Below, in pieces: positions 16,467-24,842 of a stretch of 64,000 nt of DNA. The notes under the pieces are model-generated. The model saw only the letters and a program-made list of their open reading frames with translations, was not told the origin of the DNA and ran no database searches. The translations under genes and the position numbers were made by a program. Origin of the DNA: an uncultured bacterium (GTDB taxonomy: Bacteria > Oederibacteriota > PGYV01 > CAWJRG01); assembly GCA_963845185.1 (NCBI GenBank), contig CAWJRG010000010.1:128001-192000 (forward strand). The letters are read 5' to 3'. Within the stretch, counting starts at the first letter, position 1, and each line of letters starts with the position of its first letter.

Positions 16467-16565
16467 TATGTCGATGTTTTTAAGACAAACCCGCAGGGTG
16501 CAGTCGAAAATTACATCGACATATACCCGATCCAGTCCGAGGCATTAGCCGAAGACGAGCGGTAT
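16467..16565. repeat. Two-hairpin structured repeat, copy 1
   Basis: Homologous to 22241-22339 and 61552-61652, with compensatory changes. Confidence 0.7.
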
Positions 16566-16832
16566 AATTTTTCGAAATAAATTTTTTATTCCCACAAATT
16601 ATACCCTATTGCGCTTTTTCGTCAAGGTAAAATGTCATCTGGACCTTTCTGTCATCGTTGGTTTAAATTACTGCTGTTTCCGGAAAAATCGCAAAGGTGT
16701 ATCCTTCAGTCCCACAAACCTACTGTCTACAAAAGTCAATGAATTTGTTAAAATTTCTTATTCATTTCTGATTTATGCTTCATCTTTGCCATATTTTGAT
16801 TATAAAACTCTTAACCAAAATAGCCAATGTTT

Positions 16833-16879
16833 TGATTATCATTTAATCATTTATCCAAATAGTGATTAAATTTTAATCA
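16833..16879. promoter_or_regulatory. Pair of 17-bp palindromes TGATTA-N5-TAATCA, 30 bp apart (putative sigma54 activator sites)
   Basis: TGATTATCATTTAATCA (16833) and TGATTAAATTTTAATCA (16863); same arrangement at 20279/20309. Confidence 0.65.
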
Positions 16880-16920
16880 ATTGTTTAAAAAATAATCGAT
16901 ATTTATAAGATTTTCAATTG

Positions 16921-16937
16921 TTGGCACGGGGTTTGCT
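16921..16937 (+). promoter_or_regulatory. Sigma54 (-24/-12) promoter
   Basis: TTGGCACGGGGTTTGCT matches the YTGGCACG-N4-TTGCW consensus. Confidence 0.85.
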
Positions 16938-17022
16938 AATATATCGTATGCAATAAAAAGTAATCGAAGATGACATGAGATATTACCTCTCCGGTTGCTA
17001 AAAAAATAAAAGGAGAAGAAAA

Positions 17023-17802
17023 ATGAAAACCCAGAGAAATGTAATGAGCAAGGTAACAAGAACGTGTTTTGTGCTTGTGTTTTCGTTGTTTGTTGTTATT
17101 TCATTATTTGCTACACCTACGACAGTGGACTGGACCCCGTGTACAACTTCCATTGAACCTTTTTTAAAGGGTCATATTGACAATGACATGTATACGCGAG
17201 ACACAAGCGCGCTTCCTGTGGACTATGGGTTCCTGGTCGGCATACTGCCGTTTAGCATGGTTCAGGCAGAGATAGGCTATGACACGCTTCTGCCTGTTTT
17301 TTCACCGCAGACATTCAAAGACTCCAATTATTTTAATGGTAAAATCGGAACTCCGGAAAACAGTTTATTGCCAGTAGGTATTTCAGTCGGAATATTCAAT
17401 GTAGGCATCGACACAAATGTAACAAATTATAATGTCGTACATGCTGAAATAGGAAAAACATTTGATTATGTCGGCAACATTTGCGTCGGCGGATATACAG
17501 GCAACGACAAGCTTCTTATAAATGACAACGGCAAGGTTGACAATTCAGGTTTTATGGCAAGCTGGACATCGCCCCAATTTTCAAAATTCAATATTATCGC
17601 GGATTACATGAGCGGCAATAATGCGCTTTCAGCAGGAGGTGTGGCAGTAACGGCATATTTAGCCGATAACGTAGGTATTATAATCGGGCCGGTATTCCCT
17701 CTTTCAAAACAGTTTGCAGGCAATTCAAAAGTTCTAATGACGTTTCAGCTTGACGCGGATTTTGACCTGGTTCCGCCAGCGCCTGCGCCGGCAACAAAGT
17801 AA
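17023..17802 (+). CDS. Secreted protein, possibly an outer-membrane beta-barrel
   Basis: Signal peptide, amphipathic beta-strand pattern, near-terminal FQLDADF; first gene of the sigma54 operon. Confidence 0.5.
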   Translation: MKTQRNVMSKVTRTCFVLVFSLFVVISLFATPTTVDWTPCTTSIEPFLKGHIDNDMYTRDTSALPVDYGFLVGILPFSMVQAEIGYDTLLPVFSPQTFKDSNYFNGKIGTPENSLLPVGISVGIFNVGIDTNVTNYNVVHAEIGKTFDYVGNICVGGYTGNDKLLINDNGKVDNSGFMASWTSPQFSKFNIIADYMSGNNALSAGGVAVTAYLADNVGIIIGPVFPLSKQFAGNSKVLMTFQLDADFDLVPPAPAPATK

Positions 17803-17862
17803 GTAGCATTATGATACCATTCCACAGTTTAGCCGGAACAAAAATTTTCAGGAGGTGCTCAA

Positions 17863-19761
17863 ATGGCTAACAATGATTCTCGGGTAAAGATTGTCCCGAC
17901 GCTCGGTTTGATGGGAGCTGCCATGAACGCCATGGCATTGATTGCTCCCGGGGCTTTTTTATGGATAACATACCAGCTCCAGTCAGCAGCCACGGACCCA
18001 AGCGGCGCGTCAGCTGCTCTGGATATGTGGCCGGGCATACTTGTCGCCCTGGTCCTTGCTTTTTTGACAGCCTTTTCATACGCTGCGCTGGCAAGGATAT
18101 ATCCCGAGGCCGGTTTTGCGAGCTGCGTGTACTTTGCGGAGAAAGCTTTCCTTGACTCAAGAAAAGAAAAACGCGCAGGCCCAACTTCCCTTGCCAGGAT
18201 TTCAAAACTGGTGACCGGCTGGGCCGCGCACCTGTTCTACTGGGTCTATCCCGGCGTCATGGTGGCAATGATGGCGACCATGATAGGTTACATTTACACT
18301 TCCTTTACCGGGCATACGTTTTCCAACACGACCCTTACAGTAATAGGCGTAATATTTGCCTTTGTGGTCGGATATATCGCATATAAAGGCGTAACCGGAT
18401 CCACATTGACGAATATCTGGATCAATATAATACAGTGGGTCGCGCTTGTGGTTTTCAGCGTGCTTGCAATATGGTACAGGATAGCAAACCCGGAACATGC
18501 GACAAACTGGGCTTTTTCCGGAGGCTTCGATATAGTCCGGCTTCACAGCATAAAAGCAGTTCTTGTCCAGGCCACAATAGCCATATTAATACTTGTGGGT
18601 TTTGAAAGCGCGACTGCCATGTCTGCTGAAACAAAACAACCTGAAAAAAACATACCAAAGGCCATTATTATTGCCCTTTTTGTCCAGGGCCTGCTGGCTT
18701 ATCTTTTCGAATACTTTGCCGCAAACCTGGTTGTCAGCGAAAAACTTACAGGCACGGTCACGACCGCCGCGACTGCTACGGTTGCGGCAGTGACAAAGAC
18801 AGTCACAGGCATGGACGCGATGGTGGCTTCGGCTGCGCCAATAGGCGACATGAGCAAGCTGATAGGCGACCACCTTCTTGGCGGCATTGGCACAGGGTTA
18901 ATGATAACCATGGCAATCACGGTCGCAATTGCCATAATTGGAACTACCTTAAGCTGCATGAATACTGCTGTGCGCGTCACGAATGGTATGGCAACCGACA
19001 GGGAACTTCCGGATTTCTTAAGTTTTCTGCATCCTGACAACAAGACACCGCATACGACCATCTGGCTTCTTGTTGTCGTATCCTGCGTGATCGCCGCAAT
19101 AGGAGTGCAGTCTGTTGTGGGCCTGACCGGCATTACCCTTGCCTCGAACTTCGGCACCTTTGTCCTGTATGGTCTTGTGTGCGTGTGGACAATAATCGCT
19201 TTCAAGGACAGAAAAGATTTCAATATCTTCAGGCACGGAATTGTCCCCGGCCTTGGCCTAGTTTTAAACGTCCTGATGTTGGCAGGTATTATTTACCTGA
19301 ACCTGACCGGCACTGCGGATAATAAAACAGAAGCGAGAATATGTTTTTACATTGCCGGTGGTTTCGCGCTTGTAAGTTTCCTGTATGTGATGGTAACAAC
19401 CGTGAAAAAGAACTACTCCATGAAGATGATATCGGCAATGATACGGCCTGAAAAGTTTGGGATACTCTTAGCCGTGTTAAAGGATGAAGCCCTTGTTCAG
19501 GGTATGACAGTCACTAAGGTAAAGGGTTTTGGCCGCACATACGGCAAAATAGACCCTGTTAAGGATACCAGCACCAAGATAAGGCTGCTCCCCAAGACCC
19601 GCGTCGATATCGTTGTTAATGACTGGGATGTCCCCCACATCCTTGACATAATGAAAGAAGTGTTAAAGACCGGTAAAGCGGGTGACGGAAAAATATTCGT
19701 GCTTGACGCCATGGAAGCCTTGAGAGTGTCCACAGGTGAAACCGGCGTCAATGCCGTATAA
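17863..19761 (+). CDS. APC-family amino acid/amine permease fused to a C-terminal P-II domain
   Basis: About 12 TMs with IAPGA and VGFESA...AETKQP motifs. From 19420: MKMISAMIRPEK...VKGFGR...GKAGDGKIFV...RVSTGETG. Confidence 0.88.
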   Translation: MANNDSRVKIVPTLGLMGAAMNAMALIAPGAFLWITYQLQSAATDPSGASAALDMWPGILVALVLAFLTAFSYAALARIYPEAGFASCVYFAEKAFLDSRKEKRAGPTSLARISKLVTGWAAHLFYWVYPGVMVAMMATMIGYIYTSFTGHTFSNTTLTVIGVIFAFVVGYIAYKGVTGSTLTNIWINIIQWVALVVFSVLAIWYRIANPEHATNWAFSGGFDIVRLHSIKAVLVQATIAILILVGFESATAMSAETKQPEKNIPKAIIIALFVQGLLAYLFEYFAANLVVSEKLTGTVTTAATATVAAVTKTVTGMDAMVASAAPIGDMSKLIGDHLLGGIGTGLMITMAITVAIAIIGTTLSCMNTAVRVTNGMATDRELPDFLSFLHPDNKTPHTTIWLLVVVSCVIAAIGVQSVVGLTGITLASNFGTFVLYGLVCVWTIIAFKDRKDFNIFRHGIVPGLGLVLNVLMLAGIIYLNLTGTADNKTEARICFYIAGGFALVSFLYVMVTTVKKNYSMKMISAMIRPEKFGILLAVLKDEALVQGMTVTKVKGFGRTYGKIDPVKDTSTKIRLLPKTRVDIVVNDWDVPHILDIMKEVLKTGKAGDGKIFVLDAMEALRVSTGETGVNAV

Positions 19762-19776
19762 AAAAGGAGGAATACC

Positions 19777-20118
19777 ATGAAAAGAATAGAAGCGATAGTG
19801 AGGCCTGAAAAAACCGACGATGTAATAAACGCCCTGGATGATATCGGACATCCGGGCATGATGATAAGCGAAATCGAAGGTTACGGGAAACAGCATGGCA
19901 GAGAAGACAAAGTACTGGGCAAGAAATACCATGTGGACCTTATCACCAAAACCCGCATAGAGATAATAGTAAAAGACAGCGAAGTAAAAAAGATTGCAAA
20001 TGCCATACGGGATGCGTCGTTTACAGGCGGTATCGGCGACGGGAAAATCTTTATTTACCCCGTTGATGACGTCTTACGGGTAAGGACAGGAGAAAAAGGA
20101 GAAGCTGCTATTTACTAA
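19777..20118 (+). CDS. P-II family nitrogen regulator with divergent T-loop
   Basis: MKRIEAIVRP, GYGKQ, TGGIGDGKIF and RVRTGE motifs. Confidence 0.93.
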   Translation: MKRIEAIVRPEKTDDVINALDDIGHPGMMISEIEGYGKQHGREDKVLGKKYHVDLITKTRIEIIVKDSEVKKIANAIRDASFTGGIGDGKIFIYPVDDVLRVRTGEKGEAAIY

Positions 20119-20151
20119 TAAATCTCTTTAATACAATTTACTTCAAAAAAT

Positions 20152-20237
20152 GAAAAGGTATCCTGCCCTTTTCGTTTTATCCGTCTCCAGCAGGTTTTTG
20201 ACCACGGGATGCGTCGGAAGCCGCATCCCGTTTTTTA
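20152..20237 (+). ncRNA. Conserved 3'-UTR element / candidate sRNA with terminator, copy 1
   Basis: CCTGC-[CU-rich loop]-GCAGG, TTGACCAC, GGGATGCG..CGCATCCC-T6; near-identical copy at 22345. Confidence 0.6.
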
Positions 20238-20278
20238 CTTCTTTAATCGCTGTCTGGAGATTTATTCAGGCTTAAAAT

Positions 20279-20325
20279 TGATTATTTTTTAATCATTAAT
20301 AGTTTATTTGGCTATTTTTTGACCA
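20279..20325. promoter_or_regulatory. Pair of 17-bp putative activator sites, 30 bp apart
   Basis: TGATTATTTTTTAATCA (20279) and TGGCTATTTTTTGACCA (20309). Confidence 0.6.
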
Positions 20326-20397
20326 TATTTATGGGATCAAACTATTGCCAAATACGATTTCCCCTTTAAAACATTGTATTTTTAAAGCATATGCCGT

Positions 20398-20414
20398 TTG
20401 GCATGTCTATTGCT
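20398..20414 (+). promoter_or_regulatory. Sigma54 (-24/-12) promoter of amtB-glnK
   Basis: TTGGCATGTCTATTGCT with correct GG-N10-GC spacing. Confidence 0.82.
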
Positions 20415-20549
20415 CTGTAAGATTATGTATTTTATAAATTATAAAAATGAAAGGAGGCTTTTATACAGGCAAAGGAAAACTGCTTAAAATTGATTTTGAT
20501 ACTGTGCTTCCAAAAGCAAAATAAAACTATAGAAAGGAGACGGATTAAG

Positions 20550-21881
20550 ATGAAAAAATTATTATTATTGTTGGTTGTTTTTTCCGCAATGGCAGGCGTC
20601 CTGCTTGCCGACAATACCCCTGTTGCAGCTGCTGCTTCGCCTGTCCTGAAGGTTGATTCCGGCGACACAGCATGGGTGCTCATTTCTTCCGCGCTGGTGC
20701 TTCTCATGACAGCGCCGGGCCTTGCGCTCTTCTACGGCGGCCTCGTCCGCCGCAAAAACATGCTCAGCGTACTTATGCAGTGCATGATAATGCTCGGGCT
20801 CGTAAGCGTGCAGTGGGTAATCTACGGTTACTCGCTTGCTTTCCACCCGGGCAGTGGTTTCTGGGGCGGTTTTGGCTGGTCTTTTTTAAAGGGGGTGGGT
20901 TTTACGCCTAACGCCGATTATGCCCCTACAATTCCCCACCAGGCTTTCATGATATTCCAGGCAATGTTCGCTGTTATCACCCCCGCGCTTATTATAGGCG
21001 CTTTCGCGGAAAGGATGAAGTTTTCCGCGTTTTTGCTTTTCAGCCTTGTATGGGCCACTTTTGTTTATGACCCTGTCGCTCACTGGGTATGGGGAACCGG
21101 CGGCTGGCTGAAAAACCTCGGCACGCTTGATTTTGCCGGCGGCACTGTGGTGCATATAAATGCCGGCATAGCCGCACTTGCTTCCGCGCTTGTGATAGGC
21201 AGGAGAAAATATTATGACAATAAACCCACTCCACCGCATAACATGGCGTTTTCGGTAACCGGCGCCGCGCTTTTGTGGTTCGGTTGGTTCGGCTTTAACG
21301 CAGGCAGCGCCCTGCAGGCAAACGGGCTCGCGACCAGCGCCTTTGTCGTGACAAACACTGCCACGGCAATGGCTGCGCTGACATGGGCGTTTCTCGATAA
21401 AATTTTCAACGGCAAATCCACTGTGCTCGGCACAATATCCGGCGCTGTCGCAGGGCTTGTCGCAATAACCCCCGCGTCCGGTTTCGTCGATGTCCTGGGC
21501 GCGCTTGCAATAGGAATACTTGTAAGTATATTCTGCTTTTCTGCGGTAAGCTTCCTCAAGCCGAAATTAGGCTATGATGATGCGCTTGACGCTTTCGGTG
21601 TGCACTGTGTAGGCGGCGTGGTTGGCGCTCTGGCAACCGGCTTATTCGCGACTATAGTGATCAATCCGGCAGGCGCAAACGGCCTCTTCTACGGCAACCC
21701 GAAACAATTTTTAATACAGCTTGCTGCCGTGGGCGTAACGCTCGTGTATTCTTTTGTCGGGACAATCGTTATATTAAAACTTATAGATGTGACGATTGGC
21801 ATCAGGGCCGGCGAAAAAGAAGAAGTCATAGGACTTGATTTGACCCAGCACCATGAAAATGCCTATACTCTGATAGAATAA
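20550..21881 (+). CDS. amtB: Ammonium transporter
   Basis: GDTAWVL, PGLALFYGG, DFAGGTVVH, WFGWFGFNAGS and DDALDAFGVH motifs; ATG at 20550 after GAAAGGAG. Confidence 0.97.
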   Translation: MKKLLLLLVVFSAMAGVLLADNTPVAAAASPVLKVDSGDTAWVLISSALVLLMTAPGLALFYGGLVRRKNMLSVLMQCMIMLGLVSVQWVIYGYSLAFHPGSGFWGGFGWSFLKGVGFTPNADYAPTIPHQAFMIFQAMFAVITPALIIGAFAERMKFSAFLLFSLVWATFVYDPVAHWVWGTGGWLKNLGTLDFAGGTVVHINAGIAALASALVIGRRKYYDNKPTPPHNMAFSVTGAALLWFGWFGFNAGSALQANGLATSAFVVTNTATAMAALTWAFLDKIFNGKSTVLGTISGAVAGLVAITPASGFVDVLGALAIGILVSIFCFSAVSFLKPKLGYDDALDAFGVHCVGGVVGALATGLFATIVINPAGANGLFYGNPKQFLIQLAAVGVTLVYSFVGTIVILKLIDVTIGIRAGEKEEVIGLDLTQHHENAYTLIE

Positions 21882-21898
21882 AGAAAGGAGCTGACAAC

Positions 21899-22240
21899 AT
21901 GAAACTAATAATCGCGATAATCCAGCCGAGCAGGCTGGAAGAAGTTAAACAGGAACTCTACAAGGCGGAAGTAAACCTGCTGTCTGTAAATGAAGTCCTT
22001 GGCCACGGCAGGCAAAAAGGCATAACCGAGGTTTACAGGGGCATAAAAGAATCAGGCAACCTGCTGCATAAAATACGGCTCGAGATAGCCGTGAACGACA
22101 ATTTTGTCGAGCCGACCGTGAAAGCGATAATGAAAGGCGCGCAGACAGGAGAAACAGGCGACGGCAAGATTTTCGTTCTGCCGCTTGAAGATTGCATAAG
22201 GATAAGGACAGGAGAAAAAGGAAAAGTAGCTATAGGCTAA
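21899..22240 (+). CDS. glnK: P-II family nitrogen regulator linked to amtB
   Basis: GHGRQKG, TGETGDGKIF and RIRTGE motifs; directly after amtB. Confidence 0.9.
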   Translation: MKLIIAIIQPSRLEEVKQELYKAEVNLLSVNEVLGHGRQKGITEVYRGIKESGNLLHKIRLEIAVNDNFVEPTVKAIMKGAQTGETGDGKIFVLPLEDCIRIRTGEKGKVAIG

Positions 22241-22339
22241 TTCTGCTGTTTTCCAGACGAACCCATCAGGGTGAGTCCTGGAATTACAGCGAATTGTACC
22301 CTATCAAGTCCGAGACCTTAAGTCGAGGACAAGTGGTAT
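22241..22339. repeat. Two-hairpin structured repeat, copy 2
   Basis: Homologous to 16467-16565 and 61552-61652. Confidence 0.7.
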
Positions 22340-22344
22340 TACCG

Positions 22345-22430
22345 GAAAGGCTTCCTGCCCTTTTCGTTTTATACGTCTCCGCAGGAATTGACCACAGGAT
22401 GCGGCGCAAGCCGCATCCTGCTTTTTATTT
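22345..22430 (+). ncRNA. Conserved 3'-UTR element / candidate sRNA with terminator, copy 2
   Basis: TCCTGCCCTTTTCGTTTTATACGTCTCCGCAGGA..TTGACCAC-AGGATGCGGC..GCCGCATCCT-T5. Confidence 0.6.
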
Positions 22431-22508
22431 TTCGAATATGCCGACTTTGCCAAAGCCGTCAGTGACATAGACCATACAGCCCTGAAAACGGTTATGAACT
22501 GCGCGGCC

Positions 22509-24842
22509 TTATTTGACTTCCTTCTCTATCCGGTTATATAGATTCATCAGCTTTGGCTCATTGCCGAAAGCAGCCATGCCGGTCTTAAGCACGGCCATGG
22601 CCTTGTCCTTCTGTTTCAGCTTATAGTAGGTATCCGCGATATACGCGTCTATCTCAGCGCTGTCGCCCGCTTCTTTTGTTTTTTGAAAATATTCCAGTGC
22701 TTCCTCAAAGTCTTCTTTTTTATAATCATACATTCCTATTTTCTTATAAATATCTGCCGTCCTGTAACGGCATTCAAGCAGGAAATCAAACAAATCCATT
22801 GCCCTTATGTATTTGCCGGTATCCAACAATGCGCCTGCCTGTTTGAACATTTCCCAGTATTGCGCCTGTGCATCCGCGTTTCCGATATTATCTGTATATT
22901 GCTGCAGGCTGGCTTTATTCGGGCTGCCGAATTTTATCGCATTTTCAAGCATTTTTTTTGCTATGATCCGCAGATTGTTGTGAAGGTATATCATCCCCAA
23001 GTTTTCGTATGCCACCCAGAGATTTCCCTCTTCCTTTATGATTTTTATCAGGTATTTCATTTGATTGTCTTCGTCGTTGAGCGCTTTGTAAGCAAGAGAC
23101 AAATCGTAATATATATCCGCCCTGTAGCGGTTCTCCGGGAAAAGCAAAGAATACTCAAGGCACCTTATTCCCTGCATATATTTTTTCTGGTTAAGGCACA
23201 CAATTGCCTGCTTTGCAAGTTTCTTGCTGTAGTTTGAAATTATGACCCTGTCGTAGGGGTTGTTCACCTCGAATATGCCGCGGTATGAGTATTCCCTGAA
23301 AATATAATCGGGCATTGCCCCGTTTTCCGGCATGATTTTATATAGCAAGCCCTTTCCCATAAAATTGCATTTCACAGGATAGCTCGCCAAATACATGGAG
23401 TCGTCGTGCGCAAAATAAAGATTTTTGTTGCCGCAGTATTTGTTGATTATATTGCTTATGTTCATTGGCATATTGTCCGGATCCAGACTGATCTGGCCGT
23501 ATTTATCAATAAAATCTTTAATGCCCCATTTGTTTTTGAGGTTATGCAGCATAAAAACATCAATATTATTCGCCTTGTGTTCTATCATCCGCTCGTAGCT
23601 GATGGGCATAACAAAATCACCCTCGGCTATATAAAAGCTGTGCGGCTCCAGGGTCATAAGCGCGTTGTTCCCGAAATCATAAGTAATATAATTATATCTG
23701 TTGTAGTTTGCCCTGAAATGCCCGGCCCCCGAATACAATATTGCCACTGCAAGAACAATTGCAAAAAAATATCCGTATATTCTCTTATCAAGGATATTCA
23801 TGGTATGGAATATTCCCGCCAGGATAAAAATAAAAAGGATATATTGCGATGGGATCAGGAAATTTTTCATTACCCAGATACTGTCTGAATTGGTTTTGTT
23901 GAAAAAAACAACCATAAACACCGTGATAAAAAAAGCACTTAAGTAAAAAACCGGGATTTTCCTGTTTTTCCTGAATAAAATATAACCGCCGATAAATGCC
24001 AGGACCCATAAAAACGAGAAATCATCTAAAAAAAGCCTTAAAAATTCTTTTGCCTGGTCCGCAAAGAGCTGCAATGAAAGCGTCTCATCGTTGTTGTATA
24101 TGTTTCTTAATATGGTCCACCAAAAACTTTCCCACGTGTTTGCCTTTGCCATGAAAATAAAAACCCCGTCCTGACTGGACCTTATGGGCAGGTAAATATA
24201 TGGGCTTACCCCTATCGCAAACAACAATAACAACCAGGCCGTATTTTTGCGGTTGATTTTTCCCCTGTATCTGTAGAAAAAATATCCGAATACCGGCAGT
24301 AATATTATCATGCTCGGCCAGTGGTTGGCAAGCGAAAGTCCGTAAATAAAGGCCATCATGTAAAGGTGCTTAATGCTGAATTTCTCGAAAAGCCGCGTGC
24401 CCATAAATATCATTATCGCGAAAAACAAGAGATTAAGTATGTATATGCCGCCTTTTGCGTCTATTGCCTGGTTCCAGAAAACATATGAAAAGGCAAGGAT
24501 AAAAACCCCTGAATAACCTGCTGTTTTATTCCCAAATCCGAAAAAATTATTTGCAATTTGCCCGGCAATAAAATAAGAGAGCAATAAAACCAGCATGGCC
24601 AGGAACACGGAAAACGAGCTGACCCTGAATGCAGGCGAGCCCACAGGCAGTAAAGAAAATACCTTGCCAGCGAGCGAAAAAAGCGGATAGCCGGGCGGGT
24701 GATTTATTCCAAGGGTATAAGCGGACGTTGAAATTTCCGGCGAATCGTCGCTTTTAAACGCAGGAGACATTGTATAAAGATAAACCTGGGATATGGCAAG
24801 CAGGCATATTAACAATATTGTATAGTTTACATATTTTTTCAT
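22509..24842 (-). CDS. DUF2723 (TMEM260-like, GT-C) membrane glycosyltransferase with C-terminal TPRs
   Basis: DDSPE...LGINHPPGYPL, LSLANH and YLPIRS motifs; multiple TMs; TPR-like helices. Confidence 0.85.
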   Translation of the reverse strand: MKKYVNYTILLICLLAISQVYLYTMSPAFKSDDSPEISTSAYTLGINHPPGYPLFSLAGKVFSLLPVGSPAFRVSSFSVFLAMLVLLLSYFIAGQIANNFFGFGNKTAGYSGVFILAFSYVFWNQAIDAKGGIYILNLLFFAIMIFMGTRLFEKFSIKHLYMMAFIYGLSLANHWPSMIILLPVFGYFFYRYRGKINRKNTAWLLLLFAIGVSPYIYLPIRSSQDGVFIFMAKANTWESFWWTILRNIYNNDETLSLQLFADQAKEFLRLFLDDFSFLWVLAFIGGYILFRKNRKIPVFYLSAFFITVFMVVFFNKTNSDSIWVMKNFLIPSQYILFIFILAGIFHTMNILDKRIYGYFFAIVLAVAILYSGAGHFRANYNRYNYITYDFGNNALMTLEPHSFYIAEGDFVMPISYERMIEHKANNIDVFMLHNLKNKWGIKDFIDKYGQISLDPDNMPMNISNIINKYCGNKNLYFAHDDSMYLASYPVKCNFMGKGLLYKIMPENGAMPDYIFREYSYRGIFEVNNPYDRVIISNYSKKLAKQAIVCLNQKKYMQGIRCLEYSLLFPENRYRADIYYDLSLAYKALNDEDNQMKYLIKIIKEEGNLWVAYENLGMIYLHNNLRIIAKKMLENAIKFGSPNKASLQQYTDNIGNADAQAQYWEMFKQAGALLDTGKYIRAMDLFDFLLECRYRTADIYKKIGMYDYKKEDFEEALEYFQKTKEAGDSAEIDAYIADTYYKLKQKDKAMAVLKTGMAAFGNEPKLMNLYNRIEKEVK

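Follow-up and report, generated by a model that had tools for sequence, protein, structure and literature searches.

Among small regulatory RNAs (sRNAs) that derive from untranslated regions at the 3' end (3'UTRs) of bacterial mRNAs, OppZ and CarZ of Vibrio cholerae are autoregulatory (Hoyos et al. 2020, PMC7398697), and GlnZ, which originates from the 3'UTR of enterobacterial glnA, is reported to target genes of carbon metabolism such as sucA (PMC9731577; bioRxiv 10.1101/2022.04.01.486790). A related principle operates within one mRNA in the case of icaR of Staphylococcus aureus, where a C-rich anti-Shine-Dalgarno (anti-SD) motif located in the 3'UTR is reported to base-pair with the SD region and to prevent translation (PMC3868564). 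Here, we describe a 64-kb stretch of DNA from an uncultured bacterium of the Oederibacteriota (contig CAWJRG010000010.1; the whole stretch is termed the window below), which carries two copies of an ~85-nt hairpin-plus-terminator element, each after a P-II gene. The loop of this element is antisense to the translation start region of both amtB mRNAs of the genome, a stretch made up of the SD, the spacer, the AUG and two or three initial codons. Judging from sequence comparisons, the two elements are probably 3'UTR-borne, Hfq-independent antisense regulators of a new family that would exert negative feedback on AmtB translation.

The elements resemble OppZ and CarZ in that the RNA constitutes the 3'-terminal part of an operon transcript and uses the operon's terminator, pairs with the translation start of a gene from the same operon (here in silico, copy 2 with amtB1, -22.8 kcal/mol, rank 8 of 6144), and acts in post-transcriptional negative feedback, which here is a prediction, an RNase E-family enzyme being available for processing. 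Unlike OppZ and CarZ, to which they have no sequence or Rfam relation, they pair over 20-22 bp as opposed to a short seed, and they reside in a genome in which no Hfq gene was found, whereas Hfq is among the keywords of PMC7398697. Further differences from the Vibrio RNAs are that two siblings sit on two operons, that the main target is a distant paralogue, and that the system is known from sequence alone. With GlnZ the elements share an origin in the 3'UTR of an mRNA induced by nitrogen limitation (NtrC/sigma-54), release of the RNA being predicted in the present case; in contrast to GlnZ, however, the parent genes encode P-II proteins and are not glnA, the predicted target is amtB, and the lineage is a different one, with no homology. 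Pairing of the icaR kind would be possible for copy 2 and the amtB1 SD, which lie on one mRNA; the best target, amtB2, is encoded elsewhere and copy 1 resides on an mRNA without amtB.

C/U-rich hairpin loops that occlude the SD are also a feature of RsaE/RoxS in Firmicutes and of the CcsR/alpha-r14 "cuckoo" RNAs in Alphaproteobacteria, where short generic motifs act on many targets. The loop described here differs from these in copying the whole amtB start region, hence its very high specificity, and in having no match in Rfam. A term search of a 2022 review of 3'-end-derived sRNAs found none of amtB, glnK and GlnZ, and a full-text literature search found no description of an amtB or glnK 3'UTR regulator. 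The elements have no homology to OppZ/CarZ or GlnZ, and their main target is predicted to be a paralogue in trans; most likely they form a family of their own.

The element, its two copies and its fold

Two neighbouring nitrogen operons, both on the + strand, occupy this part of the window, and the copies of the element follow them at 20152-20237 (copy 1) and 22345-22430 (copy 2), positions already assigned in a first-pass annotation of the same DNA and confirmed here. Both copies begin 28-103 nt past the stop codon of a P-II gene, at the 3' end of an operon with a sigma-54-type promoter; a regular-expression scan found exactly two TGGCAY-N5-TTGC sites in the window (16922 and 20399), one upstream of each operon. 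Copies 1 and 2 are 86% identical over 84 nt, as compared with 39% identity (44/112) between the P-II proteins encoded upstream of them, and the likeness of the UTRs was therefore not inherited from a duplicated gene. The genome under study (G000; 3.5 Mb, 99.4% complete) contains exactly two full-length copies, as recovered by BLAST with copy 1 as the query (100% and 86% identity; E 3e-39 and 9e-20), and the remaining 8 of the 10 matches at E<=10 span merely 14-28 nt, with E values of at least 0.26. A 19-mer common to both copies occurs twice in the window versus 0.07 times expected, a count that none of 100 shuffles reached.

The species is the only member of its family (f1) among the genomes compared, in which its order and class are represented by 24 species. 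When the element served as a BLAST query against the order's 23 other genomes, a single 27-nt match was returned, which lies within a coding region and was judged to be chance, and an exact-pattern scan of the genome contig collection for the element gave no matches. A comparison with Rfam had been proposed with the first-pass annotation; run with release 15 at gathering thresholds, it yielded four tRNAs only in the window and assigned the element to no family. The best sub-threshold scores on the element, 23.4 bits for BjrC1505 (threshold 50) and 26.9 for antisense_SR1 (threshold 45), came mostly from the terminator.

Each copy consists of a CCUGC/GCAGG stem around a C/U-rich loop of 22-23 nt, an invariant linker and an intrinsic terminator, and the invariant TTGACCAC is present in both. 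The two element terminators are the top two of 11 terminator-like sites within 16500-22800, and their stems differ by a compensatory G-C to A-U change, the same pair being C-G in the close relative L215. Stem, terminators and compensatory change all agree with what the first-pass annotation had read from the sequence. The folding z-scores are -3.8 and -5.9, and 0 of 200 shuffles folded equally well.

The annotated stem is thus present, but a conserved helix that the earlier fold lacked competes or forms a pseudoknot with it. This helix, termed P0, occurs in all four f1 copies, those of L215 included, and joins the 5' flank (AUGAAAAGG; CGGAAAGG; AUGAAAGGCG) to the loop's 5' half. P0 comprises 8-12 bp, covaries in L215 copy 2 and is the minimum-free-energy fold for G000 copy 1 and L215 copy 2; a MAFFT alignment of the four copies misaligned both P0 and GCAGG. 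CCUGC then falls inside the loop that P0 closes; it could bind GCAGG in an H-type pseudoknot, or the RNA could switch between the two helices. Whether or not the 5' flank is included, the seed AUCCGUCUCC within the loop is predicted to be unpaired in the four copies, mostly with a probability of at least 0.8; in a long construct of L215 copy 1, the value falls to about 0.5 at some positions. Additionally, the 5' flank resembles the AUG-proximal half of the target, a mimicry that suggests toehold-like strand displacement: the f1 RNA may be self-masked by P0, with a 10-nt toehold left free, and bind by strand displacement in the manner of a natural toehold switch. The leader of amtB2, a second amtB gene of the genome, contains two GGUCAA motifs that match the invariant UUGACC linker in antisense, and this may be a second contact.

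Complementarity to the amtB start regions

The copy-1 loop pairs with the amtB1 start region in a 20-bp helix that has one bulged target base and 10 contiguous Watson-Crick pairs, and a single C to A change in the copy-2 loop breaks this helix; both observations had been made in the first pass and stand. The choice of target has shifted in part: amtB1, the gene in the window, ranks second, and the strongest target proved to be amtB2 (G000:C10:36336), which lies beyond the window and 112 kb from both copies, so that pairing with it cannot be intramolecular. The copy-1/amtB2 helix consists of 22 contiguous pairs that begin at the SD and extend past the AUG as far as codon 3, and all three non-Watson-Crick positions in it are G-U wobbles, as expected if the pairing acts at the RNA level.

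The ranking comes from a scan of 6144 start regions produced by a crude open reading frame (ORF) caller that favours SD-bearing starts and hence favours competitors. For the copy-1 loop, amtB2 is first (-37.3 kcal/mol) and amtB1 second (-27.7), followed by the next region at -25.9, in a distribution with a mean of -9.2 and a standard deviation of 4.5; for the copy-2 loop, amtB2 is first (-30.5) and amtB1 eighth (-22.8). amtB thus outranks generic SD-AUG-AAA sites. In a second scan, the 25-nt copy-1 loop was slid along the whole genome, over 349,598 segments of 50 nt on both strands, of which the 85,130 with a 6-nt seed were scored; nothing scored above the amtB2 start except the elements' own antisense strands. 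The RNA-RNA complementarity is real and specific and, as comparisons with relatives show, evolutionarily maintained.

The remaining genes of the two operons are at background for the copy-1 loop (rank 625 for the 17023 ORF, 792 for P-IIa, 2131 for glnK and 2301 for the permease). Partial pairing with the start of the 17023 gene, which had been put forward in the first pass, does exist, but at rank 625 of 6144 it is non-specific. Ranks 3, 4, 6 and 11 are held by genes for TPR, UPF0164-like, GH30/CBM and NHL proteins, which have no nitrogen link. Rank 12 of 6144 is held by the start region of a glutamyl-tRNA synthetase (gltX-like) gene outside the window (G000:C6:38901), to which the copy-1 seed (GGAGACGGAUAAA) is matched by 13 Watson-Crick pairs in a row; as an extra target it is possible, and a weak lead.

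The gene amtB2 belongs to a glnA-amtB2-glnK2 cluster in which glnA is preceded by its own sigma-54-type site, TGGCATACCGATTGC (L143:1487), and both the glnK of this cluster and glnA end in a plain terminator. The glnA upstream of amtB2 (L143 1759-3203 = G000:C10:34759-36203) is split across two frames near ...PYSR/DPRY..., either by a frameshift or by an assembly error.

Relatives and rival readings

A pattern scan of metagenomes found eight loci, of which L215 alone is syntenic; the other seven have no nearby amtB or P-II gene. The amino-acid identities of L215 to G000 are 91% for amtB, 89% for glnK and 85% for P-IIa. Its copy-1 loop and amtB1 start region are identical to those of G000, and its copy-2 loop is unlike that of G000 and forms 18 contiguous Watson-Crick pairs (-34.7) with the amtB2 start region of G000. 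Because the L215 copy-2 loop differs in this way and fits amtB2, the siblings look specialised, with copy 1 closer to amtB1 and copy 2 to amtB2, and it seems that in G000 copy 1 has replaced the sequence of the copy-2 loop, probably via gene conversion.

The sister family f10 has the architecture, not the sequence, in common with f1. Its orthologous amtB operon (AmtB 72-74% identical to that of G000) ends in a CUCAC/GUGAG hairpin, 1-2 nt past the glnK stop codon, followed by a terminator, and the loop, UUCCUCCCCGAA(A), forms 12-14 contiguous Watson-Crick pairs with the amtB leaders (UUCGGGGAGGAA) of the same genomes. In G018, the whole genome contains the 11-mer TCGGGGAGGAA three times, once at each of the two amtB start sites and once, in antisense, in the glnK 3'UTR loop; amtB start sites and loop antisense account for two of its three occurrences in G016 and three of six in G017. 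Relative to genus g12, G023 carries a compensatory A/U swap, with the leader AUCGGGGAGG (AUCGGGG...) matched by the loop CCUCCCCGAU (...CCCCGAU). In G019, UCCUCCCCG lies within the terminator loop and is matched to the leader ACGGGGAGGA, and the leader that the G016 loop fits belongs to the other amtB operon and not to the operon of the loop itself. Duplexes between lineages are weak (f1 loops with f10 leaders, -10 to -21 kcal/mol; f10 loops with f1 leaders, -8 to -16), as compared with about -19 to -37 kcal/mol for matching loops and leaders of one lineage. Loop and amtB leader therefore co-vary both in the close relative and in the sister family; together with the ranking of amtB, this supports the view, advanced in the first pass, that the elements give post-transcriptional feedback on ammonium uptake.

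In a screen of 54 genomes of the phylum, six (G000, G016, G017, G018, G023 and G049) had a P-II 3'UTR able to form at least 10 contiguous Watson-Crick pairs with an amtB start from its own genome. The same threshold was reached by 105 of 2862 non-cognate genome pairs, a null that is inflated by cross-matches among relatives. In family f9 (L020, L021, L034, L035), two or three sibling hairpins per genome follow amtB-glnK operons; their 22-nt loop (AAGCUUCUCCUGCUUCACUGCC) is identical among copies, their stems differ yet compensate, and the exact 12-mer complement of the loop is found nowhere else in those genomes. In family f17, of a second order (L150, L151, L157, L158, L178), six glnK 3'UTRs in five genomes carry a conserved-loop hairpin with the loop UGGACCC(C/U)CAU (UGGACCCCCAU), covarying stems and a CUUCUC...GAGAAG hairpin upstream, and they may constitute a second RNA family associated with glnK 3'UTRs. 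The loop of G049 forms 10 Watson-Crick pairs with an amtB start region. Since f1 and f10 have different loop/leader pairs, and hairpins with C/U-rich loops also follow glnK in f9 and f17, anti-start-site RNAs at the 3' ends of amtB/glnK operons could be a recurrent, possibly ancient, form of ammonium-uptake control that co-evolves with amtB leaders; we offer this as a tentative idea, with the balance leaning against it.

Several observations weigh against a regulatory role of the elements as antisense RNAs. The duplex energies disregard intramolecular structure, and the start-region set comes from a crude ORF caller. In the whole-genome scan amtB1 (-27.7) is only the 19th distinct site, and the C to A change in the copy-2 loop of G000 weakens its pairing to both amtB mRNAs. 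The L215 copy-2 comparison uses the G000 amtB2 leader in place of L215's own. The conserved f9 loop is complementary to amtB over the 7-nt SD core only, about half of the amtB-bearing genomes of the order carry plain terminators instead (by eye), and the independent lineages are few, namely f1, f10 and perhaps f9. Finally, among 77 amtB-glnK operons from many phyla, pairing of the 3'UTR with its own leader is not enriched (7 of 77 in the top 5 versus ~5 expected).

The alternative that survives best dispenses with a separate sRNA: the 3'UTR would fold onto the 5' leader of the same amtB-glnK mRNA and close the SD strictly in cis. Copy 2 and the amtB1 start do share one predicted transcript, the g12 loops fit the leader of their own operon over 13-14 nt, and the f10 hairpin lies so close to the glnK stop codon (1-2 nt) that it is a true part of the UTR; icaR supplies a precedent (PMC3868564). 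We nevertheless consider action in cis alone unlikely, given that amtB2, the best target for both copies, is 112 kb away, that copy 1 resides on a permease operon without amtB, and that the G016 loop fits only the leader of the other amtB operon.

The elements could also be ordinary terminators, their antisense likeness being left over from an inverted duplication of the amtB2 5' region and playing no part in regulation. Such an origin would be difficult to reconcile with the 86% identity retained while the adjacent genes diverged to 39%, with differences that all remain wobble-compatible, with covarying helices that are retained, and with the recurrence of the arrangement in f10, where a different sequence is fitted to different amtB leaders. 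The reverse-orientation likeness to the amtB2 leader does reach past the loop (UUGACC versus GGUCAA), the 5' flank AUGAAAAGG resembles the amtB2 start, and G000 copy 2 has a mismatch that weakens pairing, but on balance we regard a functionless relic as quite improbable.

It is very improbable that a nitrogen regulator protein binds the shared ~22-bp sequence as double-stranded DNA. The genome carries the motif four times, at both amtB start regions and, inverted, at the ends of the two operons, always within sigma-54 nitrogen loci, yet these positions are downstream of the promoters or where transcripts end, each 3' copy is invariably presented in the loop of a hairpin beside a terminator, the mismatches between copies are G-U-compatible transitions, and f10 keeps the loop-in-hairpin architecture despite a different stem. 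That copy 1 encodes a small protein, in a 43-codon frame running through the element from an ATG at 20150, is scarcely credible, for although an ATG is present in the 5' flank of three of the four copies, it has no preceding SD, G000 copy 2 has no start codon, and the conserved nucleotides of L215 copy 2 are in another frame, which stops after 22 codons; the small-ORF reading was rejected on the ground that nucleotides are conserved between the copies and amino acids and reading frame are not.

Genomic context and predicted mode of action

The features of the two operons and of the elements are collected in Table 1. The layout of operon 1, in which a fusion of an APC-family permease with P-II (17863-19761) is followed by a separate P-II gene, is also found upstream of amtB in genus g12. 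The word AAAATAGCCAA is common to the AT-rich stretches upstream of both sigma-54 promoters (16800-16900 and 20260-20330), in opposite orientations, and may be an activator or integration host factor (IHF) site. Operon 2 is followed by a convergent TPR/glycosyltransferase-like gene.

Table 1. Coordinates in the window of the two nitrogen operons, the two elements and the amtB1 target site
Feature	Position	Strand	Basis or remarks
Sigma-54-type promoter of operon 1 (TGGCAC-N5-TTGC)	16922..16936	+	Regular-expression scan
259-aa ORF, first gene of operon 1	17023..17802	+	No Pfam match
Amino-acid/amine permease with C-terminal P-II domain (fusion)	17863..19761	+	Pfam AA_permease_2 1e-17, P-II 2e-16
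P-II gene a (P-IIa), last gene of operon 1	19777..20118	+	Pfam P-II 1e-28
Copy 1	20147..20237	+	P0 5' arm 20147-20158; CCUGC 20162-20166; 23-nt loop 20167-20189; GCAGG 20190-20194
Copy 1, 3' part		+	Linker with UUGACCAC 20195-20205; terminator 20204-20231 and U tail
Copy 1 seed AUCCGUCUCC	20179-20188	+	10 nt within the loop, read as always unpaired
Sigma-54-type promoter of amtB-glnK (TGGCAT-N5-TTGC)	20399..20413	+	Regular-expression scan; kept in relative L215 and family f10
amtB1 target site, Shine-Dalgarno to codon 3	20536..20556	+	20 bp with copy-1 loop
amtB1, ammonium transporter	20550..21881	+	Pfam Ammonium_transp 2e-128
glnK-type P-II gene	21899..22240	+	Pfam P-II 4e-27
Diverged full-length copy of a dispersed ~105-nt two-hairpin repeat	22241..22343		Between glnK and copy 2
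Copy 2	22343..22430	+	P0 5' arm 22343-22350; CCUGC 22354-22358; 22-nt loop 22359-22380; GCAGG 22381-22385
Copy 2, 3' part		+	Linker with UUGACCAC 22386-22395; terminator 22395-22420 and U tail

The dispersed repeat next to copy 2 is not part of the regulator. It is absent from L215, where a 35-nt spacer separates glnK from copy 2, and is therefore a recent insertion. The genome holds 13 copies of the repeat with the core GAGGACAAGTGGT and strongly covarying stems; five other full copies gave no Rfam matches. For 9 of the 13 copies, the opposite strand leads after 108-175 nt to the SD and ATG of a gene unrelated to the repeat, the products of these genes resembling, by eye, those of argG, ilvD and gatC and a PPi-PFK; the copy in the window faces into glnK instead.

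As regulators of AmtB translation, the elements would act as follows. Upon transcription of the nitrogen operons, their 3' ends would accumulate, either cut by an RNase E/G-type enzyme or left on the mRNA. The single-stranded 10-nt seed AUCCGUCUCC would nucleate on the amtB SD, and the duplex would then zip to 20-22 bp across the SD and AUG, an arrangement that implies translational repression. Binding of the 30S subunit would be blocked, and a duplex of that length could also be a substrate for RNase III. The predicted outcome is negative feedback on AmtB synthesis, together with cross-talk from the alternative permease operon to ammonium uptake, with Hfq not required. A search for Hfq (PF17209) gave no match in the 99.4%-complete genome, and the same search found Hfq in 5 of 14 control genomes; homologues of RNase E/G (290 bits) and RNase III (95 bits) are present. 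A genome without detectable Hfq but with these two nucleases fits a long-duplex, Hfq-independent regulator.

AmtB is classically controlled by transcription via NtrC/sigma-54 and by GlnK, which plugs the channel. If the proposed regulation is true, a translational brake in the operon's own 3' end would add a third layer to this control, and the RNA would, judging by the full-text literature search, be the first of its kind reported for amtB. It would also represent a rare well-supported sRNA-target pair in an uncultured phylum without Hfq and, with a predicted duplex that is long and specific and with natural compensatory variants in relatives, one that would be unusually easy to test.

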